The position numbers and the translations under genes are program-made. From the NCBI GenBank assembly GCA_018175275.1, contig GCA_018175275.1_4531.1: a stretch of DNA of 64,000 nucleotides. One strand, written 5' to 3'. This DNA comes from a phage. Position 1 is the first letter of the stretch, and each line of letters starts with the position of its first letter. The notes under the pieces were generated by a model. It searched no databases. It saw only the letters and a list, made by a program, of their open reading frames with translations, and was not told the DNA's origin. Shown piece after piece: positions 26,684-50,563 of this stretch.

Positions 26684-27292
26684 ATGCAGATAGTATGTGA
26701 TTGGGATTTAGTTGTGGCTCCATTAGATGTTGCTTGGTTAGAATGGTTGAATAAGATTAGTGGACTTGGTGTTAAGATAGACACATTCACAAAAAATGCA
26801 GACTATGATCTTACCAACTACTTTCCTGGTTTCAGGGAGGAGTTCAATATAGATCCTTACGGATTTCTGGATAATCCTCATCTCTATGATACAATGGGTT
26901 TTGTTCCAGGTATGCCAGATTTCTTAAAGTATGTTTCAAGGAAAGGTAGCAATCTTTTGATCGCAAGTGTGACAAAAGGTGGTCACTTAAGTTCTAAACA
27001 TAAGCATGTTTTAAGAACGTTAGATACGATTGATTTTAGCAAAGGATCTGGTAACGGCTTTTTTGCTACGAAAGAAAAATACTTATTGCCTTGTGATATA
27101 GCAATAGATGACAGGGCTGATAACCTACTATATTTTCCAGATGAAGTGGTTAAAATATATTTTAATACGCCTTATAAAGATAACCATCTAGAAGAACTAA
27201 AGAAAAAACCAAATGTTGTGATCACAGGTTTAGAAGATCAGTGGCTAACATGTTTGGATGTTTTTAACACTTTGAACAATTTTAAAAACTAA
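26684..27292 (+). CDS. hypothetical protein (weak HAD-like nucleotidase resemblance)
   Basis: 202 aa; N-terminal IVCDWDLVVAPLD and internal AIDDRAD loosely resemble HAD motifs; not convincing. Confidence 0.3.
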   Translation: MQIVCDWDLVVAPLDVAWLEWLNKISGLGVKIDTFTKNADYDLTNYFPGFREEFNIDPYGFLDNPHLYDTMGFVPGMPDFLKYVSRKGSNLLIASVTKGGHLSSKHKHVLRTLDTIDFSKGSGNGFFATKEKYLLPCDIAIDDRADNLLYFPDEVVKIYFNTPYKDNHLEELKKKPNVVITGLEDQWLTCLDVFNTLNNFKN

Positions 27293-27301
27293 GGAGAAAA
27301 A

Positions 27302-28300
27302 ATGACAAAACAGATTTCGGCTAGTATTATTGCGCATTCCATCACTGAAGACGGAAAAGAGATTGTAACTTTTGAACTGGAATATCCACGTATTATTCAT
27401 TCAGAACTGATGACTCACCGCCTGTTCAGTCGTAATGCTGCTTCTAGCCGTGCTATACCTGTTAAAACACTGATTGAAATGGTGCGAAATCAACCTGCTC
27501 GTCCTTATCGTTTTGGGGCTAACCAACCTGGTATGCAGGATAAAGGTGTTGATCATGACGCTCTTATTGATGCAGGTTATACTGCTCAAGAGTGGTGGGA
27601 TCTTGCCGCGCTTAGTGCAGCACGTTTTGCAGAAGAATTCTCTTTGGCAGGGTACCACAAACAAGTTGCAAACCGTCTTCTGGAACCTTTCCAACGAATT
27701 AAAACAGTTCTGACAGCAACAGAATATGAAAATTTCTGGTGGCTACGTGATGACAAAGAAGCCGATCCTACTATCGAAGCTTTGGCTAAAGAGATGCACA
27801 AAGAGTATGAAGAATCTACACCAGAAGTGCTGAAACCAGGGCAATGGCACACACCTTATGTAGACCATTTCTATGATAATATTGGCACAGAAGGTGACGA
27901 TCATTTTGTTTTTGGTGGATACTACGTTCAAGATGAATCTGGAGAAGTTGTTGTGCTTACTTTGGAAGAAGCCAAAGCTATTTCAGCTTCGTGTTGTGCA
28001 CAGGTTAGCTATCGTCGTTTAAATGCAACTAAAGATAAAGCTTTAGATATCTATGGTCGTTTGCTGACTGGGCGTAAGGTTCATGCTTCTCCGTTTGAAC
28101 ATCAAGCTACTCCAATGCAAGAAACATGCGAACAATACGGAGAGAACTGTTTTGAAGATTTGTTTATCAATGCTCCTTGGGATTTTAACTCTTGGGAACC
28201 AGGTATTACCCATGTAGATCGTAATGGTAAGTTTTGGTCTGGCAATTTCAAAGGTTGGATTCAACATCGTCAACTTTTAACAAATCATACTAAATGGTGA
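27302..28300 (+). CDS. thyX: flavin-dependent thymidylate synthase ThyX
   Basis: 332 aa; ThyX signature R-H-R-x7-S-x-R present as MTHRLFSRNAASSRAIP. Confidence 0.65.
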   Translation: MTKQISASIIAHSITEDGKEIVTFELEYPRIIHSELMTHRLFSRNAASSRAIPVKTLIEMVRNQPARPYRFGANQPGMQDKGVDHDALIDAGYTAQEWWDLAALSAARFAEEFSLAGYHKQVANRLLEPFQRIKTVLTATEYENFWWLRDDKEADPTIEALAKEMHKEYEESTPEVLKPGQWHTPYVDHFYDNIGTEGDDHFVFGGYYVQDESGEVVVLTLEEAKAISASCCAQVSYRRLNATKDKALDIYGRLLTGRKVHASPFEHQATPMQETCEQYGENCFEDLFINAPWDFNSWEPGITHVDRNGKFWSGNFKGWIQHRQLLTNHTKW

Positions 28301-33959: not shown

Positions 33960-34952
33960 ATGCGCTATCTGGTAACAGGTGGTCTTGGTTTTATTGGGAG
34001 TGCCGTGGTGCGCTCTCTTTGTCAAGATCCTAATAACGAAGTTTTTGTCGTTGATAAGATGAGCTATGCAGCAGATATTGAGAATGTAGGCGATATCACT
34101 CACGTTAAACTAAGCATGACAGATTTGGCAAACGAAGCCCAAGTAAAAAGTTTAGTAGTAGAGTGCAATCCCGATTTCATCATTCACTTAGCGGCAGAGA
34201 GTCATGTGGATAATTCTATCAAGAATCCACGAGTTTTCATCGACTCCAATATTATTGGTACATACAATTTATTGGAAGCTGCAAGGCTCCTCCCAAAGAA
34301 TAAACTGAAGATGTTCGTACACGTCTCCACAGACGAAGTGTACGGCGATATGGCAGACTCTGGCGTTCCCTTTACCGAAGAGACAGCTTATGCCCCTTCA
34401 AGCCCATACAGTGCGTCTAAGGCAGCATCTGACCATCTTGTGAAAGCTTGGCACCGTACCTACGATTTGCCTGTTGTGATAACCAACTGCTCCAATAACT
34501 TTGGACCCTATCAACATCCAGAAAAGCTGATCCCAAAAATCATCACAAGTATCTTGACGAATAAAGAGATTCCGGTGTATGGTAAAGGCGATCAGGTGCG
34601 AGACTGGCTTTTTGTTGAGGATCATGCGCGAGCTATTCTTCAAGTGGCAACAGGTGGAGAACCAGGTAAAACGTATAATGTGGGAACACGTAATCCCAAA
34701 ACCAATATGGAGATCATCTATATGGTTTGTGACTACATGGATGCTGTACATCCAGAAGCAGGAACCTACCCTTCTTCCAACTTGATAACTTTTGTTGAAG
34801 ATCGTAAAGGGCATGACTTGCGTTATGAAATCAATCCTTCTAAGATAGAGTCTGAACTGGGTTGGAGTGCAAACTCTACATTTGAACAAGATCTCTACTC
34901 AACGATTGAATGGTACTTAAACAACCCTCAATGGTGGAGTGGGAAGATTTAA
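33960..34952 (+). CDS. rmlB: dTDP-glucose 4,6-dehydratase (RmlB/RfbB)
   Basis: 330 aa; N-terminal TGGLGFIGS Rossmann motif, catalytic YSASKAA (YxxxK). Confidence 0.7.
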
Positions 34953-34960
34953 GGAGGGCT

Positions 34961-35839
34961 ATGAAAGGTATTATTTTGGCGGGAGGAAGTGGAACCCGCC
35001 TTCATCCGGTAACACGCAGTGTGAGCAAGCAATTGCTCCCTGTGTATGACAAACCCATGATCTACTACCCTTTATCGGTATTGATGTTGGCTGACATTAA
35101 GGATATCTTAATCATCACCACACCAGGCGATCAGGAAGACTTTGAGTATCTTCTCGGAGATGGGTCTATGTTTGGGATAAAACTCACTTACGCAATCCAA
35201 TCCGAGCCGCGAGGTCTTGCGGACGCTTTCATCATCGGTAAAGATTTTATCGGAGAAGACTCTGTTGCTCTTATTTTAGGTGACAACCTATTCTTCGGAC
35301 AAAGCTTTGGTAAACTACTGATTAACGCCAGTGAGATGGTAGATGTTTGTGGCGGAGCTTGTATCTTCGGGTATTTGGTGAAAGATCCTGAACGATTCGG
35401 TGTGGTTGAATTTGGGAGTAATCGTCAAGCTATTTCTATTGAAGAGAAACCTGAAAATCCTAAATCAGATTATGCTGTCACAGGTTTGTATTTCTATGAT
35501 AACTCTGTTGTTCAACGTGCATTAGAAGTAACCCCTTCCGCGCGTGGAGAACTGGAGATCACAGATATCAATCGCAGCTACCTCGAAGACAGGAAGTTAC
35601 AAGTGGAAGTTCTCGGACGAGGATTTACTTGGCTTGACACAGGAACACACGCCAGTCTGATGGAAGCTGGTCAATTCGTGCAGACTATTGAGAACCGTCA
35701 AGGGTTGAAGATTGCGTGCCTGGAAGAAATTGCTTTCAAAAAAGGGTGGATTTCTTTAGAGACTTTGGTATATCATGGAAACTCACTGAAGAAAACAGAG
35801 TACGGGCAATACCTACTCAAATTAGCGGAGAGAAAATGA
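34961..35839 (+). CDS. rmlA: glucose-1-phosphate thymidylyltransferase (RmlA/RfbA)
   Basis: [18 protein letters not shown] signature; start taken at ATG 34961 after AAGGAGGG (track ORF begins 34910). Confidence 0.7.
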
Positions 35840-36402
35840 AAGTAGAAAAAACAAAAATTGAAGGTGCGGTAATTATCAAACCAGACGTTTATAAAGATGA
35901 TCGTGGTTTCTTTTTAGAAACATATAATGAACAAAAATACGAAGATATCATCGGTAGACAAACTTTCGTTCAAGATAACATGTCTAAATCAAACTTCGGT
36001 GTTTTGCGAGGAATGCACTTTCAAACAAATAATCCGCAAGGTAAGCTTGTTCGTTGTGTAAGTGGGGAAGTATTGGATTTCGCTGTAGACCTACGTAAAG
36101 ATAGTCCTACTTACGGTGCTTGGGACGGTGTTGTTCTTCGTGCACGACACCATACACAGTTCTGGCTTCCACCTGGTTTGGCGCATGGTTTTATAGTGTT
36201 GAGTATGGATGCTATCTTCGAATACAAATGCACAACTCCATACGACCCTTCCAGCGAACAAAGTTTACGTTGGGATGATCCTGATATAGGGATTGATTGG
36301 GGCTTCGATATGATTTTTGACGAAGATTTTAAACCTATCTTATCAACAAAAGATGCAATGGCTAAGTCTTTTCAACAGCTACGTAGCGAGGGTGTATGCT
36401 AA
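35836..36402 (+). CDS. rmlC: dTDP-4-dehydrorhamnose 3,5-epimerase (RmlC/RfbC)
   Basis: 188 aa from ATG 35836 overlapping the rmlA stop (ATGA); cupin-type epimerase motifs; gene order B-A-C-D. Confidence 0.6.
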
Positions 36403-37238
36403 CATATCTGGTATTGGGTGGTAATGGACAACTGGGACAAGCTTTACGTAAAGTGGCTCCTTCAAATGTGTCTTTAATTTATCCTAAAGAACGTGTAGAT
36501 ATTACAAATTTTGAAGCTGTGCGAAACGCTATTGTTGAAGATTATGTAGATGGTGTTATTAATTGCGCTGCTTATACGGCTGTAGATAAAGCAGAACAGG
36601 ATTTTGCTACTGCTTTGGCTGTTAATGCCTATGGCCCTGCAAATATTGCGGCAGTGTGCAGCAAACTTAAAATTGATTTTGTGCATATTTCTACAGACTA
36701 TATTTTTAATTATTCTCATCCTATTTTTGAAGACACTACACCTAACCCGATAAACAATTATGGGTATACGAAAGAACTCGGTGAAAAAATGGTGCGAGGA
36801 GTTAACCCAAACGCATATATTATTCGAACAGCGTCTGTATATAGTGAATTTGGAAATAACTTTCTAAAAACCATGTTGTCTCGCTATAATGATGGACAAC
36901 GTGATTTTATTATTGTTGCTGATCAGTTCTCTTGTCCAACATATGCCCCAGATTTAGCAGAAGCTATTTTTGAAGTATTAAAAACAGGTTGGTCAAGATC
37001 TGTAAAGACTTACCATTTTGCAGGAAGCCATCTTATTTCTTGGGCGGAGTTTGCGGAAAAGATCTTGACACAGATGCCAGAACCTGTTAAGATATCGGCG
37101 GTATCAGCTTCAACCTATAATGCTCCAGCAGCACGTCCGGTGAAGTCACAATTAGTAACCAGTCACTATCTTACAAAATCAGATTTAAATAAAGGTATTG
37201 AACGGTCTTTAGCAGTATTACTTAATAAGGAGAGGTAA
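36396..37238 (+). CDS. rmlD: dTDP-4-dehydrorhamnose reductase (RmlD/RfbD)
   Basis: 280 aa; N-terminal LVLGGNGQLGQAL Rossmann motif; last gene of rml set. Confidence 0.6.
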   Translation: MLTYLVLGGNGQLGQALRKVAPSNVSLIYPKERVDITNFEAVRNAIVEDYVDGVINCAAYTAVDKAEQDFATALAVNAYGPANIAAVCSKLKIDFVHISTDYIFNYSHPIFEDTTPNPINNYGYTKELGEKMVRGVNPNAYIIRTASVYSEFGNNFLKTMLSRYNDGQRDFIIVADQFSCPTYAPDLAEAIFEVLKTGWSRSVKTYHFAGSHLISWAEFAEKILTQMPEPVKISAVSASTYNAPAARPVKSQLVTSHYLTKSDLNKGIERSLAVLLNKER

Positions 37239-38989: not shown

Positions 38990-39493
38990 TTGATGGGTGT
39001 AGCAACAATAGCTATCGGAAGAAGTGGTATAGATGAGTGCTATCAAACGGGACTCGTAAAACCTAACGAATTTCGTCAAATTTGTGTAAACCATATTGAA
39101 AAAGAGATTGCTCTTACTTTAGAGAATATGACCCTCCGAGATAAACTGGAAATGTTTAAATGTTGGTGTCTAGGAGAAGATTGGCTTTTAAACCATTTTC
39201 AAGAACTTTCTGATAGTAAAGAAAGCTTGTTTGATTGTATAATAGGAATAGCTGGCTCCGATCCTAGCCTTCTGCACATAACAGAAGAAGAGGCGAAGTT
39301 ACTGTTCTTAAGTAATTTGTTTAATAAGAAAGCACTGCTTGTTCGTGATTGCAGTGATCTTCTTAATAACCCGCTCGCAACGTCTGATCAAATTTTTGTT
39401 GACAAAGAGACACTACGTGCGATAGAATACATCTGCAAATATGTGAATGGCGGGAAAGCGGTTCTTAAAACATTAACAGAGGAGGAAGAATAG
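38990..39493 (+). CDS. hypothetical protein
   Basis: 167-aa ORF with AAGGAGGA RBS. Confidence 0.4.
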   Translation: MMGVATIAIGRSGIDECYQTGLVKPNEFRQICVNHIEKEIALTLENMTLRDKLEMFKCWCLGEDWLLNHFQELSDSKESLFDCIIGIAGSDPSLLHITEEEAKLLFLSNLFNKKALLVRDCSDLLNNPLATSDQIFVDKETLRAIEYICKYVNGGKAVLKTLTEEEE

Positions 39494-40185
39494 TGACGAC
39501 AATTATTGCAACCAAGAATAAGATTTTGAGTGATGGTAAGGTAACTTTTGGCGGACGTGTAGATTCTATTAATTTCAAAAAGGTCCGAAAAATTGGAGAT
39601 TACCTTGTAGGTGGTGCTGGTCGTCTGACCTCCGTGCTTTCTTTCTTTCAATGGTTTGAACAAAACCTACAGTGCGAAGCAGCACGTGATGCTGTCCCTG
39701 GTTTGATGATTCATTCTGATCCAGATAAAGAAGATGAAGAGTTTATTGCGCTTGTTGTTCATCCAGACGGACGTATTTTCCTGCACGAAGGTAACAATCC
39801 AACACGTGCATATCCGATTGATGAAGAATATTATGCAGTAGGAAGTGGGTCAGACTTTGCTTTAGCTGCTCTTGATGCAGGGGCAACACCAGAACAAGCT
39901 ATGGAAGTAGCTAAAAAGCGAGATGCTTTTTCTGGTGGTGAAACATTTATTGAAGAACAAGACGAGATTATTGAATTAACAGACGATGATTTAGAAAACT
40001 TCTCCAAAGAAGAATTAATCAATCTTTTGAAATTCGGTAATCCCTACGGTGAAGAAGAACCTCGTAACGTGGCAGGTAACGAGGCGGACACTGAAGAAAA
40101 ATCTGTTGCAGAAAACAACTTGACTTCTAAATCTGAAAATATTAATCTCGTAAATGTGGCGGATTTCGAAGGAACCGCTATTTAA
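39493..40185 (+). CDS. HslV-like N-terminal-nucleophile peptidase with acidic C-terminal extension
   Basis: 230 aa; N-terminus M-TTIIA (Thr at 2), VGGAG, YAVGSGSDFALAALDAG parallel HslV TTIVSV/GFAGG/IAIGSGGPYAQAAARA; about 70-aa acidic tail. Confidence 0.5.
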   Translation: MTTIIATKNKILSDGKVTFGGRVDSINFKKVRKIGDYLVGGAGRLTSVLSFFQWFEQNLQCEAARDAVPGLMIHSDPDKEDEEFIALVVHPDGRIFLHEGNNPTRAYPIDEEYYAVGSGSDFALAALDAGATPEQAMEVAKKRDAFSGGETFIEEQDEIIELTDDDLENFSKEELINLLKFGNPYGEEEPRNVAGNEADTEEKSVAENNLTSKSENINLVNVADFEGTAI

Positions 40186-40230: not shown

Positions 40231-40665
40231 ATGTTACAAGTTCCTGCTAAGTTTGTTGAAGGCGCTATCCACTCTTACCGTCAAACATGTAAGAGGGCAA
40301 GAAACTGTTTAGATGGTCTGGTGGCAAAAACCTATACTGTTGAAAAGAAGAAACGTTGGTTTGGCAAAGATGTTTACGAAGTTAATATTTTTGGTGAACA
40401 TAAACTAAACCACGATACTCCTGAAAACATGTTAGAAATATTTCTAAGAGATGACAAAATATCTCCTATGGATTACCAACTTTTAAAATTTTATGATTCT
40501 TCTTTGGCTATTGATAAGTTTGTTGAGGATATTTTGTCTAGAAAAACAGATAAAAACACTTATCCTCTAGAGGCTGATCAAATAGGATTATTAAACGAGA
40601 TTTCATCTTTTAAAGAGTTGGATAATATTACAAAAGAGGAGATTTTAGATGGCATTAGATTATGA
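40231..40665 (+). CDS. hypothetical protein
   Basis: 144-aa ORF with AGGAGA RBS. Confidence 0.4.
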   Translation: MLQVPAKFVEGAIHSYRQTCKRARNCLDGLVAKTYTVEKKKRWFGKDVYEVNIFGEHKLNHDTPENMLEIFLRDDKISPMDYQLLKFYDSSLAIDKFVEDILSRKTDKNTYPLEADQIGLLNEISSFKELDNITKEEILDGIRL

Positions 40666-41158
40666 TCGCCCAACGAGCGATTATTATCCTACACCGCAAA
40701 AAGCAATCAATAGTTTGTTTAGTGTTATAGATTTCAAAAATCTAAAGGAAGAAGGTTGGGTTTTTGCAGAACCTTGCAGAGGTGAAGCTGAAGCGATTTA
40801 TCGCCATTTTCCTGAAGGTTCAGAATATTGTGAACTTGAAGAAGGTAAGGATTATTTTAGTCACGAGTGGGAAAATCGTCCCGACATTATAATCACAAAC
40901 CCTCCATTTAAGTTAGCAATGGAGTTCTTGGAAAAGAGCTTAAAAGAGGCGGATGTTTGTATTTATCTTCTTCGGTTGGGCTTCTTGGAGTCAAAGAAAC
41001 GACGAGAGTTCCATCAAAAGAATCCACCGACAAACCTTATAGTTCTTTCAGAACGGCCTTCGTTTGTTGCAGGTGGAACAGATAAGACAGCATACGCTTG
41101 GTATGTATACGACCCAAAGAATCGTTTGGGCCTCTCTCAACCATTTTATTTTGTTTAA
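40649..41158 (+). CDS. putative methyltransferase-like protein (NPPF motif)
   Basis: 169 aa; IIITNPPFKLAMEF resembles N6-adenine/N4-cytosine methyltransferase motif IV; too short for a complete enzyme. Confidence 0.35.
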   Translation: MALDYDRPTSDYYPTPQKAINSLFSVIDFKNLKEEGWVFAEPCRGEAEAIYRHFPEGSEYCELEEGKDYFSHEWENRPDIIITNPPFKLAMEFLEKSLKEADVCIYLLRLGFLESKKRREFHQKNPPTNLIVLSERPSFVAGGTDKTAYAWYVYDPKNRLGLSQPFYFV

Positions 41159-45884: not shown

Positions 45885-46157
45885 GTGGAGTCTGAAGGCG
45901 AACTGCTGATAAAAAAGAAAGTTAAAGAGATGGAACAAGCACAGAGAAAGTTTCGTAAGGAAATTGAAGAACTTTGTGAACAGTTTCAGGAACAAGCTTG
46001 GATAGGTGACTACGGCAACGGAGAAACTTATTACCCTACAGGAACGCCAGCCGCAGATCACTATATTGATTTCATTTGTGAAGATTATGGTGTAGAGTTG
46101 GATGAAAATGGTTTAACCACAAGAGGTGTTTGGATCTCTTCTTCCTCAATGTGTTAG
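45885..46157 (+). CDS. small acidic protein with C-terminal VWISSSSMC tail (family member 3)
   Basis: 90 aa, GTG start with AAGGAGAG RBS; followed by terminator. Confidence 0.5.
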   Translation: MESEGELLIKKKVKEMEQAQRKFRKEIEELCEQFQEQAWIGDYGNGETYYPTGTPAADHYIDFICEDYGVELDENGLTTRGVWISSSSMC

Positions 46158-46165
46158 TAAATAAT

Positions 46166-46187
46166 AACCCGCTTCGGCGGGTTTTTT
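46166..46187 (+). terminator. rho-independent terminator
   Basis: stem CCCGC/GCGGG with TTCG loop followed by TTTTTT. Confidence 0.55.
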
Positions 46188-46188
46188 A

Positions 46189-46217
46189 TTGACAGGAATC
46201 TGGAAGCTTGATAAACT
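46189..46217 (+). promoter_or_regulatory. sigma70-like promoter (TTGACA-N17-TAAACT)
   Basis: -35 46189-46194, -10 46212-46217, directly after the terminator. Confidence 0.45.
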
Positions 46218-46247
46218 TAACCTATCAACCAATAGAGGAGAAATATT

Positions 46248-47189
46248 ATGGTGTTAATTGGTAGCCGTGCATTACAAATTCATGCTATGGACATGGGAAA
46301 AGACTTGTATCGCCCTTGTGTAGATTTAGATTATCTCTGTACAGAACAAGAGTGGGAAGAATTATCAAAAATGTTCTCTCAAGACGAGTTTGTTGAACTT
46401 GTAGAACGTAAAGGGAACAAAGGCCATGTCAAAATGATAGCTGGTGCACATTTGGAATACGATATTGCTTCTCAAGGAGATAGCACAGAAGCTTTGATTA
46501 GTTATTGTGAAGATTCTGATGATGTTCGTCGAACTTACGCTGGACATGTTGTTGCTCCTTTAGATGTGCTCTACCTTCTTAAAATGAGTCATCGTTTTAA
46601 AAAGGATAGTCCTCACTTCTTTAAAACTATGAAAGATATTCATTTCATGCGGTCACTGGGCGCAAAGATCCCAGAAAATCTTAAGAGTATTTATGAGTTG
46701 CGTGAGAAAGAAACATACACTTACTCTCATCCGAACTTAAACGTAAAAAGTAAAGAGTTCTTTAAAGGTGACGAGGTTCCGTATGTTTATGATCATGATT
46801 CTATCCATGAAGCAATCGCGTTAATGGATGCTCCAGCATATAAATCTTATATGAAAGATGGAAGTGAAGTTATGACCAGCAAAGAAAAGTTTTTTGCTCA
46901 ACCAAAACATGTGCGGCTGTTAGGTGTTTATGAAGAAGCGTGTGTTTTGGCTTTGGAACGTTCACAAATTCCTTTCGGTGAAGAGATCGGAGGTCCAACC
47001 CCTAAGCAAAGTTTTATAATGGCTTTATCTAAAGTCTGCACATCCATCACTAGTGGTTGGTTTAGGGAATATGCTTGGGAAAACTTTTATGTTGTTATTA
47101 AGCTATATGAAAACATGGGCGAAAACGACTATGTTGAACGTTTTAAAGCTAATCAACATGTAGTAAAGCCTTTTGAAGGAGGTTATTAA
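46248..47189 (+). CDS. hypothetical protein (possible nucleotidyltransferase fold)
   Basis: 313 aa; N-terminal LIGSRALQIH...CVDLDYL loosely fits the GS...DxD pattern of pol-beta-type nucleotidyltransferases; unverified. Confidence 0.3.
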   Translation: MVLIGSRALQIHAMDMGKDLYRPCVDLDYLCTEQEWEELSKMFSQDEFVELVERKGNKGHVKMIAGAHLEYDIASQGDSTEALISYCEDSDDVRRTYAGHVVAPLDVLYLLKMSHRFKKDSPHFFKTMKDIHFMRSLGAKIPENLKSIYELREKETYTYSHPNLNVKSKEFFKGDEVPYVYDHDSIHEAIALMDAPAYKSYMKDGSEVMTSKEKFFAQPKHVRLLGVYEEACVLALERSQIPFGEEIGGPTPKQSFIMALSKVCTSITSGWFREYAWENFYVVIKLYENMGENDYVERFKANQHVVKPFEGGY

Positions 47190-47586
47190 TATGTGTGGAT
47201 ATCTTTCAGAAAGTTATTTCAAAGTGACGCATGAGGATTTAGAAAAAGCACGATTGAAACTGACAGCTATTATTGAATACTCTAATACTGTTGAACACAG
47301 ATTAAAGACTACTAAAGTATCTGTTCCTTGTTGGTTAGGTTTACGGCATAAAATAATGTCTCAACATGACCATGTTGTTCGAGAGATGCATGGTTGGTGT
47401 TGGTTTCACGATGTGGCTCTGCATTTTGGTTATATTACAGAAGAAGAGCATAGATTCTGTGAACTAACATATCGTATTCCAACCCTTCACGATTTAGATT
47501 TGTGGAAGAAAGCAAACGAGATTTTTCTTACAGAAAGTGATTGGCGTAAAGTTATGGCTTGTCTTGAATGGAGGGGTAATGAGTAA
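47173..47586 (+). CDS. hypothetical protein
   Basis: 137-aa ORF. Confidence 0.4.
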   Translation: MKEVINMCGYLSESYFKVTHEDLEKARLKLTAIIEYSNTVEHRLKTTKVSVPCWLGLRHKIMSQHDHVVREMHGWCWFHDVALHFGYITEEEHRFCELTYRIPTLHDLDLWKKANEIFLTESDWRKVMACLEWRGNE

Positions 47587-48262
47587 AACAGTTTTGTCTA
47601 TGTTTGACGGATCTGGGATCATGGTGTTACGTTATGCCGAAGCAGGTCACAAGTGTTTTTGTGTAAACGCTGATGAAGGGGATCACGGTAAATACGAGGT
47701 TAGGATGGAGCACCCAAACATAACCTATGTGAATGCTTGGATAGATTCTACATTCAACCCTGAAGATCATGGGATACCTAAACCCGATATTATTTTTGGA
47801 TTTCCACCTTGCACTATGTTAGCAGGTAGTGGTAGCAAACACGAACGCAGCACAGAGGAATTGGATGAAGCTTTAGCTAATATTCGTGTAGTGGAAGCTT
47901 TGGGTAACAAATATAATGTTCCTTGGATGATTGAGAACCCAGTAGGTAAACTTTCAACCTTATGGCGTAAACCCGATTTTTACTTTGATCCTTATGAGTA
48001 TGGTGGGTATTTGTTTGAAGAGGAAGGAAGCTTTCATCCTAAAATGCCTACCCGTGATGGGTATACAAAGAAAACTTGTATTTGGCACGGCAATGGTTTT
48101 GTTCAACCAGTGAAGAAACCAGTAGATCATATAGGCTGCTTCTGGGGTTGGAAAAGCTTAGGTGGAGCTAGTGCAAAAACAAAACAACTTAGATCCCTAA
48201 CCGCACGTGGTTTTGCTCGTGCCGTGTTTTTGTCTAACAATCTTCTAGATAAGGAGAAATAA
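47579..48262 (+). CDS. C5-cytosine-methyltransferase-like small protein
   Basis: motif I LSMFDGSG, Pro-Cys motif GFPPCT, ENV-like MIENPVG; about 227 aa, no obvious target-recognition domain; start set at ATG 47579. Confidence 0.4.
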   Translation: MSKTVLSMFDGSGIMVLRYAEAGHKCFCVNADEGDHGKYEVRMEHPNITYVNAWIDSTFNPEDHGIPKPDIIFGFPPCTMLAGSGSKHERSTEELDEALANIRVVEALGNKYNVPWMIENPVGKLSTLWRKPDFYFDPYEYGGYLFEEEGSFHPKMPTRDGYTKKTCIWHGNGFVQPVKKPVDHIGCFWGWKSLGGASAKTKQLRSLTARGFARAVFLSNNLLDKEK

Positions 48263-48912
48263 TGTCAAATTCAAAACCAGTAGTTGCTTATCAAGTAGAT
48301 CGTAATGATGGTGAAGGAAGTGTTGTTATTTTCAGTACACACGGTCTTGAGGCTCGTCGAAAAGGTGCATATCGTTTAGAATGTGAGTTTGAAGACTGCA
48401 CAAGCCACCGTGTCAAACAATTCGATCAATATGCTGATAAAGGCTTCGTCCCTATCAAAGCCTTACTGGAAGATGGTTGGTGGGTATATTCTGCTTTTGA
48501 TGGTGTTAGACTCGACGAACCTGTAGGAGGTCTTGAGGCAGATTTTGACGAATGCGAAGATGGCTTGTATATTGAAGAGGATCTTGTATTTTCCCTTGAC
48601 GAGAAAAGCGTGTGGAAGAACTGGGAAGAAATGGAACGTCACGCGCATTTTATCAACAATGCTTTGATTCGTAAAGCTTGGTTTATGGAGGCGGTGAAGG
48701 TAGCGTATCCGCAGTTCACCTTTACAGAGGTTTGGGGCGGTCCACACCACATCACCCATACAGCATTTTTCGACTTCCCTGGTTCACGTTACAAAGGTAA
48801 TATAATGTGGGACTGGGATGAGAATAAACAACCTTCGGCTCAAGACTTCCGTTGTTATGTTTGCCAAGGCGATCAAGAAGCCCTTGACAAATACCTACAA
48901 AGTCTGGTATAG
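48262..48912 (+). CDS. hypothetical protein
   Basis: 216-aa ORF. Confidence 0.4.
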   Translation: MSNSKPVVAYQVDRNDGEGSVVIFSTHGLEARRKGAYRLECEFEDCTSHRVKQFDQYADKGFVPIKALLEDGWWVYSAFDGVRLDEPVGGLEADFDECEDGLYIEEDLVFSLDEKSVWKNWEEMERHAHFINNALIRKAWFMEAVKVAYPQFTFTEVWGGPHHITHTAFFDFPGSRYKGNIMWDWDENKQPSAQDFRCYVCQGDQEALDKYLQSLV

Positions 48913-48970
48913 TGCCAGCATCTGAACAAAGCCTCCTGTTTCAGGGGGCTTTTCTTTTATGGGAGGAAAT

Positions 48971-49462
48971 ATGTTTCAAGTAGAAATTCATGTGCACAAC
49001 AGTTGTTCAAATTGCGAAACTTGTGGTTACAATAGTTCAACCATGATCACTATTAGCGGAGACTTAGGAGATGCCAAGTTTGGCGAAGTTGCAAGCTGCT
49101 TCAGCGGAGAGGATGCAGATTGGCATGATATTGCACACTGGTTGGTGAGCAAACTAAAAGAAAAAGAGAAACCATTTCCTGCTCTGCTTGATCGTTCTCT
49201 TGTGGAAGATGCAGGTAAAGCATATGCAGACTATGCATATGCAGACGGGAAATATTTGGAAGATGATAAGGCTAACCATTTGCTTTATGTTTACTATGAA
49301 GCTGAATCTGCCTACGATAATTATTACAGCATGTCCAACATTCTACGTTTGTTTGCGGAGTTTGATATTTACTTTGAAGTGAGTTATTCTCAAGACGAAG
49401 TGCACGATTTGGATGACGAAGATTATGATGATTATGAGGAGGAAGAATGCCAAGACGATTAA
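48971..49462 (+). CDS. hypothetical highly acidic protein
   Basis: C-terminus DEVHDLDDEDYDDYEEEECQDD; ATG 48971 with GGGAGGAAAT RBS. Confidence 0.4.
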   Translation: MFQVEIHVHNSCSNCETCGYNSSTMITISGDLGDAKFGEVASCFSGEDADWHDIAHWLVSKLKEKEKPFPALLDRSLVEDAGKAYADYAYADGKYLEDDKANHLLYVYYEAESAYDNYYSMSNILRLFAEFDIYFEVSYSQDEVHDLDDEDYDDYEEEECQDD

Positions 49463-50247
49463 TAGTGATCAGCGGCGCTGGCTTAAGCGCCGATAGCGGT
49501 GTTCGTACTTTCCGCACTGACACAGAAAGTGGCAAAGCTTTGTGGGATGAATACGACCTTTCTGAAGTGTGCGACATTTTCAACTTCCGTGCTGGATACC
49601 AACAAGAACAGTGTGTTCCTGGGGCTGTTGGCGGATTAGATGCAGAGGGATACAACCTCTACCGTAAAACTCATGACTTCTACAATAAACGTCGCGTAGA
49701 GATGGATAGTGTAACTCCTAACGCTGCGCATTACCAGATCGCGGAATGGTTTCAAGAGTACGGCTGTGATCGTGTTATCAACATCACGACAAACGTAGAT
49801 GATCTTCTGGAACAAGCGGGTGTTGTTCATGAAGATGTTCTACATGTTCACGGCTTCCTGCCTGAAGTGATCGTAGACAATAGAATCATCAAAGATGTTG
49901 GCTATGCTGCTATCGATGTGGATGATTACAAGTATGTGAAGCCCAATGTAGTGTTCTTTGGGGAGACTGCCCCATTGTATAACGATATGTACCACATCTT
50001 AGACGGCTTGACGGCTCAAGATATGGTGATTGTAGTGGGTTGCTCTAATCAAGTTATCAATTTTAACTGGGAGCTTTTTCCTGCTCTTAATAGCGGGACA
50101 AAAATGGTTGTAGTTAACCCTGGAGTTAATTACGAAGAAACACTTCTCTATGAAGATCGTGGAGTTTTTGTTTACCGAGAAAAAGCTGCAACAGCCTTCA
50201 GCAATGAAGGTTTCATTAAAATGGTCGAAGACCACTTAAACAAATAA
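49447..50247 (+). CDS. Sir2-family (sirtuin-like) NAD-binding protein
   Basis: 266 aa; GAGLSADSGVRTFR, ITTNVDDL, HVHG, VVFFGE motifs; no CxxC...CxxC zinc ribbon. Confidence 0.6.
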   Translation: MPRRLIVISGAGLSADSGVRTFRTDTESGKALWDEYDLSEVCDIFNFRAGYQQEQCVPGAVGGLDAEGYNLYRKTHDFYNKRRVEMDSVTPNAAHYQIAEWFQEYGCDRVINITTNVDDLLEQAGVVHEDVLHVHGFLPEVIVDNRIIKDVGYAAIDVDDYKYVKPNVVFFGETAPLYNDMYHILDGLTAQDMVIVVGCSNQVINFNWELFPALNSGTKMVVVNPGVNYEETLLYEDRGVFVYREKAATAFSNEGFIKMVEDHLNK

Positions 50248-50256
50248 ACCACTCAA

Positions 50257-50276
50257 GGGGCTTCGGCCCCTTTCTT
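50257..50276 (+). terminator. GGGGC-TTCG-GCCCC hairpin terminator
   Basis: third copy of the tetraloop hairpin followed by TTTCTT. Confidence 0.45.
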
Positions 50277-50290
50277 ATTAGGAGAATAAA

Positions 50291-50563
50291 ATGACTGAAG
50301 AAATCCGTGATTACTACCTTGCACATTACGTTTACTACTTTGCTAATGCTACACAAAAAGGGGAAGGTAATCTTTACTTGGCAACAGGACATGGAACAGG
50401 CGTTAGGAAATCAAATATTGATAATGCCTTGGCTCAAGTGGCTGCGGGGCTAGAAGATAAACTTCAAACACCTGTAGTTGTAGTGATGCAAAATATAAGT
50501 TACCTAGCAAGTTGTACTGAAACCGAATTTAACGCGTCTGAGACGCAATCTAACGAAGAATAA
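50291..50563 (+). CDS. hypothetical protein (last plus-strand gene)
   Basis: 90-aa ORF with AGGAGAA RBS. Confidence 0.4.
   Translation: MTEEIRDYYLAHYVYYFANATQKGEGNLYLATGHGTGVRKSNIDNALAQVAAGLEDKLQTPVVVVMQNISYLASCTETEFNASETQSNEE

Follow-up and report, generated by a model that had tools for sequence, protein, structure and literature searches.

The best-described relative of the larger of the two proteins considered here is the Dcm-like enzyme of phage K42, whose genome is 95.4% identical to that of KarlJaspers (Bas06), a member of the Drexlerviridae. The 711-bp dcm gene of K42 was mutated in four of four phages that had escaped the retron Ec86 (Eco1), and the gene raised the level of 5mC on the msDNA of this retron, as seen by LC-MS with a product matching the 5mC standard, and triggered defence; with a C82A/E128A/K175A/K176A quadruple mutant, no rise in 5mC on msDNA was seen (bioRxiv 10.1101/2023.08.16.553469). 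Superposition on DNMT3A placed K175 and K176 of the K42 enzyme in its active site, and mutating the CC of the msDNA sequence CCTGG abolished Ec86 defence (bioRxiv 10.1101/2023.08.16.553469). Any motif that overlaps the CC would be lost in such mutants of the msDNA. The K42 experiments were performed in dcm+ MG1655, with CCWGG as an assumed rather than mapped target; the host Dcm of this strain did not by itself trigger Ec86, and the authors considered that Dcm itself is likely to be toxic when overexpressed (bioRxiv 10.1101/2023.08.16.553469).

Here we describe two small methyltransferase genes in a stretch of phage DNA of 64,000 nucleotides (the window). The window is from a Phapecoctavirus, a phAPEC8-like E. 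coli myophage, with 99.2% identity to Escherichia phage SKA64. In our reading, both products are full-length and probably active orphan methyltransferases of this lytic phage, the larger (227 aa) a cytosine-C5 enzyme and the smaller (169 aa) an enzyme of the gamma class. Both genes are already annotated in public phage records, and it is a relative of the cytosine enzyme that has been characterised experimentally. A first-pass annotation of the window had described both proteins as methyltransferase-like and unusually small, which PHROG matches, motifs and fold bear out; the ORF list and translations also place both reading frames and the motifs it named where it had put them.

A predicted cytosine-C5 methyltransferase of 227 amino acids

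The 227-aa gene and its recognisable elements are as follows:

47579..48262, + strand: predicted compact, solitary DNA cytosine-C5 methyltransferase gene of 227 aa ('Dcm-like', phrog_757)
47603..47617, + strand: motif I, F-D-G-S-G, SAM binding (aa 9-13; D10, G11, S12 and G13 invariant in 30 homologues)
47801..47815, + strand: motif IV, F-P-P-C-T, with catalytic Cys78 (aa 75-79; F75, P76, C78 and T79 invariant)
47933..47950, + strand: motif VI, E-N-P-V-G-K (aa 119-124; E119, N120, P121 and G123 invariant)
48062..48085, + strand: putative motif VIII equivalent, Y-T-K-K-T-C-I-W (aa 162-169; Y162, K164 and T166 invariant)
48086..48187, + strand: putative minimal target-recognition region, H170-Q203, about 34 aa, between the motif VIII equivalent and motif IX
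48188..48226, + strand: motif IX/X equivalent, L-R-S-L-T-A-R-G-F-A-R-A-V (aa 204-216; L204, R205, S206, T208, G211 and A215 invariant)

The reading frame could also open earlier, at a GTG at 47537. Three observations favour the ATG at 47579: GGAGG stands 5 nt before it as a ribosome-binding site, phAPEC8 and ukendt are annotated with this start, and it fits the N-termini of homologues. The gene lies within a multi-gene + strand unit that runs from a DUF7275 gene to Sir2, and has no conserved neighbour in the KarlJaspers, DrSchubert and RB49 neighbourhoods or when the flanking ORFs of the window are compared with KarlJaspers by tblastn.

The protein matches phrog_757 ('DNA methyltransferase') with an E-value of 1.8e-84 over residues 1-225, and searches returned 870 homologues and 1,896 representative clusters at 50% identity. 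This compact C5-like family is held by 1,488 phage records (Drexlerviridae, Vequintavirinae, RB49-like phages and others), concentrated in phages of Escherichia, Klebsiella and Salmonella, which are enterobacteria with a host Dcm. Its members are nearly all of 210-250 aa and match end to end, and those of the second family discussed below are of 165-180 aa, so that neither protein is truncated, as it had looked at first pass. The KarlJaspers counterpart of the characterised enzyme is bas06_0055, a protein of 236 aa that is 50% identical to the 227-aa protein over its full length (E 1e-71). Across three Phapecoctavirus genomes, the gene has accumulated six synonymous and no non-synonymous substitutions, and the gene for the 169-aa protein ten and one, respectively. 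Given the numbers of homologues, the PHROG matches and this synonymous excess, neither reading frame is open by chance.

Names in phage records include 'Dcm', 'Dcm-like C5 cytosine methyltransferase' and 'DNA methyltransferase'; the counterparts of both genes of the window in phAPEC8 and ukendt are labelled 'DNA methyltransferase', 'Dcm' or 'putative DNA methyltransferase', and public phage records contain genes whose products have 100% identity to the 227-aa protein, some of these genes being labelled 'Dcm' or 'DNA methyltransferase'. Orthology to E. coli Dcm was considered and rejected, hhalign of the family profile pairing with that protein just the motif IX stretch (RPRRLTPRECARLM, residues 398-415; 17 columns, probability 1.9%, non-significant). 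'Dcm' in these records is a functional label and does not denote orthology.

The first-pass annotation had reported FDGSG, Pro-Cys and 'ENV-like' motifs in the order found in cytosine-C5 methyltransferases. The order holds; the last of the three reads ENPV. Motif I pairs with FSGAG of M.HaeIII in alignment and motif IV with its PPC, the catalytic Cys being followed by Thr where Gln is usual. Cys78, Glu119 (the ENV glutamate), Lys164 and Lys165 align to C82, E128, K175 and K176 of the K42 enzyme, respectively, and the two lysines appear to stand where the arginines of a QxRxR motif VIII are usually found; that Y-T-K-K-T-C-I-W corresponds to motif VIII is suggested by our own reading together with the K42/DNMT3A superposition mentioned above. 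The homologue alignment holds 43 invariant columns, with all catalytic motifs among them.

In the predicted structure the nearest folds are DNA cytosine-C5 methyltransferases, with DNMT3B the top match and DNMT3A/3B the closest overall. Curated profiles are less informative: the Pfam PF00145 model reaches 11.6 bits where 22 are required (E 0.18, covering motifs I-IV only), NCBIfam gives no match and in Pfam and NCBIfam together nothing lies above threshold for either of the two proteins. Neither has a significant match among PDB sequences in single-sequence or profile searches, so that motifs and predicted fold are what connects them to solved enzymes.

From the chemistry of the family, SAM would be held by the FDGSG of motif I and the target cytosine flipped out of the helix, whereupon Cys78 would attack C6 with Glu119 of ENPV protonating N3, and the methyl group would pass to C5. 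Lys164 and Lys165 would replace the usual motif VIII arginines in this scheme. DNA would be read by the conserved segment of about 34 residues, a situation like that of DNMT3A/B with their small TRDs. The assignment of aa 170-203 as the recognition region is suggested by its position. It had been said that the protein leaves no room for a target-recognition domain and, at about 34 residues, the space is indeed slight; the segment itself is strongly conserved rather than missing or variable, with P177, W189, W191, G195, T201 and K202 invariant and a pLDDT of 74-97.

The 169-aa NPPF protein

The second gene lies upstream on the same strand:

40649..41158, + strand: predicted gamma-class (M.TaqI-like) amino-methyltransferase catalytic domain of 169 aa, lacking a recognition domain (phrog_799)
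40682..40696, + strand: putative motif X equivalent, Y-Y-P-T-P, N-terminal (aa 12-16; T15 invariant, Y13 and P16 nearly so)
40769..40795, + strand: motif I, E-P-C-R-G-E-A-E-A (aa 41-49; E41, P42 and C43 invariant, G45 nearly so)
40898..40909, + strand: motif IV, N-P-P-F, the catalytic amino-methyltransferase motif (aa 84-87; N84, P85 and P86 invariant)

Its product matches phrog_799 (E 2.8e-59) and has 247 homologues, all within the narrow size range given above, in 544 phage records. Named by pattern, its motifs follow the order X, I, II, III, IV (YYPTP at 12-16, EPCRG at 41-45, E62, D68-Y69 and NPPF at 84-87). We take Y-Y-P-T-P to be motif X from its pattern and the layout of M.TaqI. The family consensus for motif I is EPCRGxGA, whereas the members from the Phapecoctavirus clade are one residue longer here and are missing the second Gly. 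The protein ends about 30 residues past an RPSF motif, without a C-terminal recognition domain.

Profile evidence centres on the NPPF region, the site of matches to Pfam EcoRI_methylase/MTS (weak, below threshold) and to PADLOC MTase_II; PADLOC returns just weak matches, to type II and DruM methylases, within the N-terminal half, and no NCBIfam or other curated family was matched. The AF2 model (pLDDT 89) finds lmo1582, a type I M subunit, M.TaqI and CamA in Foldseek, with E-values of 2e-4 to 4e-4 and TM-scores of 0.5-0.6. Small RNA methyltransferases (PH1948, TrmM, KsgA/Erm) score similarly.

No gene next to it is conserved in Vequintavirus, Mydovirus or a Vibrio siphovirus, and comparison of its contexts in MaxBurger, KpS8 and the Vibrio phage yields a PhoH-protease pairing within the rV5 supergroup as the sole shared synteny. 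In relatives the gene is found a few genes away from that for a tRNA nucleotidyltransferase.

Most likely, the 169-aa protein would make N6-methyladenine in DNA, possibly with relaxed specificity. All public annotations of the family are as a DNA N6-adenine methylase ('putative N6 adenine methyltransferase' in the BASEL phages), and the related Vequintavirinae phage CB7, annotated with both an N6-adenine methylase and a cytosine methylase, gives a ClaI digest pattern that suggests Dam-type methylation.

Another reading takes the protein off DNA altogether, either as an RNA amino-methyltransferase producing m6A or m2G on tRNA or rRNA (in the manner of TrmN6/TrmM or METTL5/PH1948) or as a PrmC-like protein glutamine methyltransferase. 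These enzymes share the NPPF/Y chemistry and are comparably small. The lack of any recognition domain would fit such a role, as would the top Foldseek TM-scores, which go to PH1948, a putative RNA methyltransferase of 200 aa (TMq 0.57-0.60), with TrmM, KsgA and Erm also represented; a PDB profile search with the family gave only weak matches, METTL5 and an rRNA methyltransferase among them, and the phage encodes tRNA genes of its own, and the tRNA nucleotidyltransferase gene is nearby in relatives. Against this, the lowest Foldseek E-values belong to the DNA enzymes and the YtxK-like lmo1582, and the weak PADLOC matches and the annotations point to DNA, although none of this evidence is experimental. 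We consider an action away from DNA unlikely, and retain adenine methylation of DNA as the preferred role.

Target sites and alternative readings

The 227-aa enzyme would most likely methylate the DNA of the phage, and of its host, at a motif that is short and fixed. The K42/KarlJaspers homologue suggests, by analogy, that this may be CCWGG, a host-like Dcm site, in which case the enzyme would maintain full methylation of phage DNA during replication. The window has 62 CCWGG sites where 73 are expected and 278 GATC sites where 297 are expected; neither is avoided, while site-avoidance statistics show many other restriction sites to be strongly avoided. The retention of CCWGG and GATC is compatible with methylation but is not decisive, as the host's own Dam and Dcm would explain it equally well. 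Whatever the two enzymes methylate, broad protection is not conferred.

The enzyme may instead be active on C5 without being a CCWGG 5mC methylase, either reading another or relaxed short motif (a di- or trinucleotide, perhaps as a DNMT3-like dimer) or performing carboxymethyl transfer in the manner of CmoX. Several points lean this way: the recognition segment is about 34 aa, the nearest folds are those of DNMT3B/3A, likeness to the recognition domain of E. coli Dcm is not detectable and, in the K42 work, CCWGG was assumed, MG1655 Dcm failed to trigger Ec86 and Dcm was held likely to be toxic on overexpression. Set against these are the match of the K42 product to the 5mC standard, the loss of defence on mutation of CC in the msDNA CCTGG, the concentration of the family in phages of Escherichia, Klebsiella and Salmonella and the retention of CCWGG in the window. 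On balance, we think this reading unlikely. We are similarly doubtful of a broader version, in which both proteins would be minimal nucleic-acid methyltransferases whose targets differ from their database names, the C5 enzyme reading a very short or relaxed motif other than CCWGG (possibly as a DNMT3-like dimer) and the 169-aa core being a non-specific adenine methylase or a tRNA/rRNA methyltransferase.

Modification of DNA is the most likely role of both proteins, in line with the first-pass annotation. Its suggestion that nucleotides might be modified found no evidence, the fold matches of both proteins all being enzymes that act on nucleic-acid polymers. It had also raised the possibility of inactive decoys, and one or both proteins could in principle be truncated remnants or bind DNA or SAM without methylating, given their small size, the lack of matches to curated Pfam and NCBIfam models and the absence in this clade of the second glycine from motif I of the 169-aa protein. 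We regard this as very improbable: small size is a family-wide property, the catalytic Cys, the ENV Glu and NPPF are invariant, as the cofactor-binding motifs largely are, substitutions are almost all synonymous and the 50%-identical homologue from KarlJaspers has in K42 a close relative whose activity in vivo requires the corresponding residues.

Least probable of all is the proposed link to the rml pathway, in which both enzymes would act with the phage dTDP-rhamnose genes in hypermodification of DNA or nucleotides: a complete rmlBACD set does lie at 33960-37238 on the strand shared with both methyltransferase genes, and rhamnose glycosylation of hydroxymethylated bases has been the subject of speculation (Olsen et al.), but unrelated genes (glutaredoxin, lysozyme, PhoH and an HslV-like peptidase) separate the loci, the annotated gene of thymidylate-synthase type nearby resembles ThyX and not a hydroxymethylase, some 1,500 phages carry the C5-like family, among them siphoviruses of 45-50 kb such as KarlJaspers, in whose annotation rml does not appear, and relatives with such sugar genes stay highly RM-sensitive.

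Comparison with known enzymes

Both families are among the smallest nucleic-acid methyltransferases, and in the literature we found no direct mapping of a target motif for either (for the compact C5-like family, no specificity mapped for any member, genome-wide or otherwise), no assay of either protein in this phage or genus and no Phapecoctavirus or Vequintavirus methylome. Retron Ec86 is known to be triggered by the family of the cytosine enzyme, and this could matter for the choice of host when phAPEC8-like phages are used therapeutically: since the retron senses 5mC on its own msDNA, 5mC activity would be a liability in Ec86 hosts.

The 169-aa protein shares with M.TaqI, CamA, type I HsdM and YtxK (lmo1582) the X-I-II-III-IV motif order, the NPPF motif and a likeness in catalytic-domain fold. 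Unlike these enzymes, it lacks a recognition domain or specificity subunit, and its motif I is atypical; the resemblance is at the level of fold (E about 1e-4).

The 227-aa protein would share with E. coli Dcm and M.EcoRII (472 aa, CCWGG) the chemistry, a recognisable motif IX stretch and, by the assumption of the K42 authors, the same target site, but it is half as long, without the N-terminal extension and without the large TRD. It resembles the catalytic domains of DNMT3A and DNMT3B (PDB 6u8p, 4u7t) in predicted fold, at 14-20% identity. The DNMT3 enzymes differ further in working as dimers or tetramers with regulatory domains and in reading CpG, and the recognition segment of the phage enzyme is shorter still. 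The Dcm-like proteins of KarlJaspers and K42 are its nearest described counterparts. These are encoded by siphoviruses rather than by a phAPEC8-like myovirus and in another gene neighbourhood; in common with the protein of the window, they belong to the compact family, carry the catalytic Cys, Glu and Lys-Lys residues and are the products of solitary genes in lytic E. coli phages.

The 227-aa protein and its family

The window comes from a phAPEC8-like E. coli myophage of the genus Phapecoctavirus; over nt 46000-50500, identity is 99.2% to phage SKA64 and 96% to phAPEC8. Both methyltransferase genes considered here belong to known, annotated families, and both proteins are likely to modify DNA. 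To this extent the first-pass annotation, which described two small, possibly DNA-modifying methyltransferases, holds, whilst its suggestions that they are truncated, inactive decoys or linked to the dTDP-L-rhamnose (rml) genes do not. The ORF encoding the 227-aa protein is present as proposed, with a GGAGG ribosome-binding site 5 nt upstream of its ATG and overlaps of 8 nt with the upstream gene and 1 nt with the downstream gene. It lies in a plus-strand unit running from the DUF7277/DUF7275 gene to Sir2, and predicted terminators flank the counterpart of this DUF7275-to-Sir2 unit in phAPEC8.

46248-47189, +, DUF7277 plus DUF7275 protein, function unassigned (E 1.2e-75), same unit as the C5-like gene
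47579-48262, +, C5-like gene, 227 aa
49447-50247, +, phage Sir2-family protein (E 6.5e-20), same unit as the C5-like gene

The match to phrog_757 ('DNA methyltransferase') covers the full length of the protein (E 1.8e-84). Searching 5.8 billion proteins gave 870 relatives, the best 120 having 60-99% identity and lengths of 210-267 aa, and a profile run against 1.84 billion representatives returned 1,896 clusters. As nearly all of these are 200-260 aa and aligned end to end, small size is the norm for the family and the protein is full-length. By tblastn, the gene is found in 1,488 of 50,697 phage records, including T1-like Drexlerviridae, Vequintavirinae, RB49-like Straboviridae, Kagunavirus and Dhillonvirus, and in 65 records the encoded product reaches 99% identity or more. 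The gene is annotated as 'hypothetical protein' in some records and as 'DNA methyltransferase', 'Dcm' or 'Dcm-like C5 cytosine methyltransferase' in others, and databases thus already list it as a methyltransferase.

The three motifs reported previously are found in the order claimed:

aa 9-13, FDGSG
aa 75-79, FPPCT
aa 119-124, ENPVGK

Alignment of 30 diverse members gives 43 invariant columns, among them D10-G11-S12-G13, P76, C78-T79, E119-N120-P121, K164 and a C-terminal block, L-R-S-x-T-x-x-G-x-x-x-A. Judged by these conserved motifs, the protein looks catalytically competent. The Pfam PF00145 match is confined to motifs I-IV and reaches 11.6 bits, below the threshold of 22; the NCBIfam search gave no match and PDB sequence searches none that was significant. 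Y-T-K-K-T-C-I-W (aa 162-169) is the probable equivalent of motif VIII, and L-R-S-L-T-A-R-G-F-A-R-A-V (aa 204-216) would be motif IX. With these motifs so placed, ~34 residues (aa 170-203) are left for target recognition, and the earlier view that a normal target-recognition domain would not fit is essentially right. Because this stretch is strongly conserved, with P177, W189, W191, G195, T201 and K202 invariant, it suggests a single specificity common to the whole family.

The 169-aa protein and gene neighbourhoods

The second ORF also exists as described, with NPPF at aa 84-87, and its product is normal-sized, not truncated, for a family whose members are mostly 165-180 aa.

39493-40185, +, HslV-like peptidase gene, downstream of PhoH and ~460 nt upstream of the 169-aa gene
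40649-41158, +, 169-aa protein

The protein matches phrog_799 ('DNA methyltransferase', E 2.8e-59), and the gene is present in 544 phage records, the BASEL phage annotations calling it 'putative N6 adenine methyltransferase'. The invariant residues T15 (YYPTP), E41-P42-C43, Y69, N84-P85-P86, R136-P137 and W151 suggest a gamma-class amino-methyltransferase with motifs X, I, III and IV in the order of M.TaqI but no C-terminal recognition domain. In Phapecoctavirus and the closest clades, motif I (window 40769-40795) is EPCRGEAEA against a family consensus of EPCRGxGA, one residue more and with the second Gly gone.

The likeliest activity of the protein is N6-adenine methylation of DNA. Using a confident structure model (pLDDT 89), Foldseek recovers lmo1582, a type I M subunit, M.TaqI and CamA with modest scores (E 2e-4 to 4e-4, TM 0.5-0.6). 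Action on RNA is a serious alternative, since the small RNA methyltransferases PH1948, TrmM, KsgA and Erm score about as high as these DNA enzymes. We found no experimental test of any family member.

Homologues P0158, P0171, P0190, P0225 and P0235 in the family alignment carry a 25-30 residue Cys-rich insert (columns about 170-205) between the RPxF and G-TD motifs. Its zinc-ribbon-like pattern, C...CxxxxxxxxC...CxC-GG, may mark an accessory element that binds nucleic acid; the window protein has no such insert.

Comparison of contexts in relatives revealed no conserved partner outside the rV5 supergroup for either methyltransferase gene. The neighbours of the C5-like gene are completely different in KarlJaspers, DrSchubert and RB49, and synteny of the 169-aa gene with Vequintavirinae is limited to PhoH-protease. 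Vequintavirus and Mydovirus loci have a ClpP-like protease at the HslV-like position, so that the PhoH-protease-methyltransferase order is conserved whilst the protease type differs. In the window, a 144-aa ORF separates the peptidase and 169-aa genes. An extra 441-aa 'putative N6 adenine methyltransferase' (879-2204 in DrSchubert) is also encoded by Vequintavirus phages; its gene lies amid replication genes, ~1.3 kb upstream of the Dcm-like one.

Site avoidance, rml genes and decoys

Many restriction sites are strongly avoided in the window.

Restriction-site counts, window 1-64000 (observed / expected)
CTGCAG: 0 / 14
GGATCC: 0 / 8.6
CAGCTG: 0 / 8.2
GCATGC: 0 / 6.2
CCATGG: 0 / 5.5
GTAC: 61 / 178
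CCGG: 17 / 51
GGCC: 23 / 60
CTAG: 63 / 137
CTSAG (CTCAG, either strand): 5 / 52
CCSGG: none in window
GATC: 278 / 297, not avoided
CCWGG: 62 / 73, not avoided

The pattern agrees with narrow, host-like methylation, of phage or of host origin alike, combined with passive avoidance of sites. It also agrees with the exceptional sensitivity to restriction-modification systems that the BASEL work found in Vequintavirinae and their relatives.

Other genes in the window include:

26684-27292, +, NT5C-like deoxynucleotidase, preceding the ThyX-like gene
27302-28300, +, ThyX-like protein, 332 aa, partial Thy1 model match (E 1.6e-8, profile positions 59-191)
33960-37238, +, rmlB, rmlA, rmlC and rmlD, a complete dTDP-L-rhamnose set with strong Pfam matches

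We see no link between the rml set and the methyltransferases: unrelated genes separate it from both, and the C5-like family is also common among small siphoviruses, for instance KarlJaspers, in whose annotation no rml genes are listed. Decoys fare no better. Among three Phapecoctavirus orthologues, synonymous and non-synonymous differences number 6 and 0 in the C5-like gene and 10 and 1 in the 169-aa gene, small counts that speak against decay.

Comparison with Dcm and the K42 enzyme

Orthology to E. coli Dcm was rejected: hhalign detects no sequence relationship, pairing only the motif IX stretch (RPRRLTPRECARLM), and that not significantly. 'Dcm' in phage records is a functional label, not one of orthology. 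A closer comparison is KarlJaspers bas06_0055, 50% identical to the 227-aa protein over its full length (E 1e-71). The dcm gene of the related phage K42 triggers retron Ec86, in work of which a Cell Reports version reportedly appeared in 2024. The K42 genome is 95.4% identical to that of KarlJaspers, its Ec86 escape mutations all fall within the 711-bp dcm gene, and dcm expression causes growth arrest in Ec86-carrying cells (bioRxiv 10.1101/2023.08.16.553469). By LC-MS, the wild-type enzyme gave more 5mC on msDNA than a C82A/E128A/K175A/K176A mutant; the CCWGG target was borrowed from E. coli Dcm, not mapped, and the strain was dcm+ (bioRxiv 10.1101/2023.08.16.553469). The mutated residues C82, E128, K175 and K176 align with C78, E119, K164 and K165 of the 227-aa protein, and the cytosine enzyme of the window has in K42 an experimentally characterised relative.
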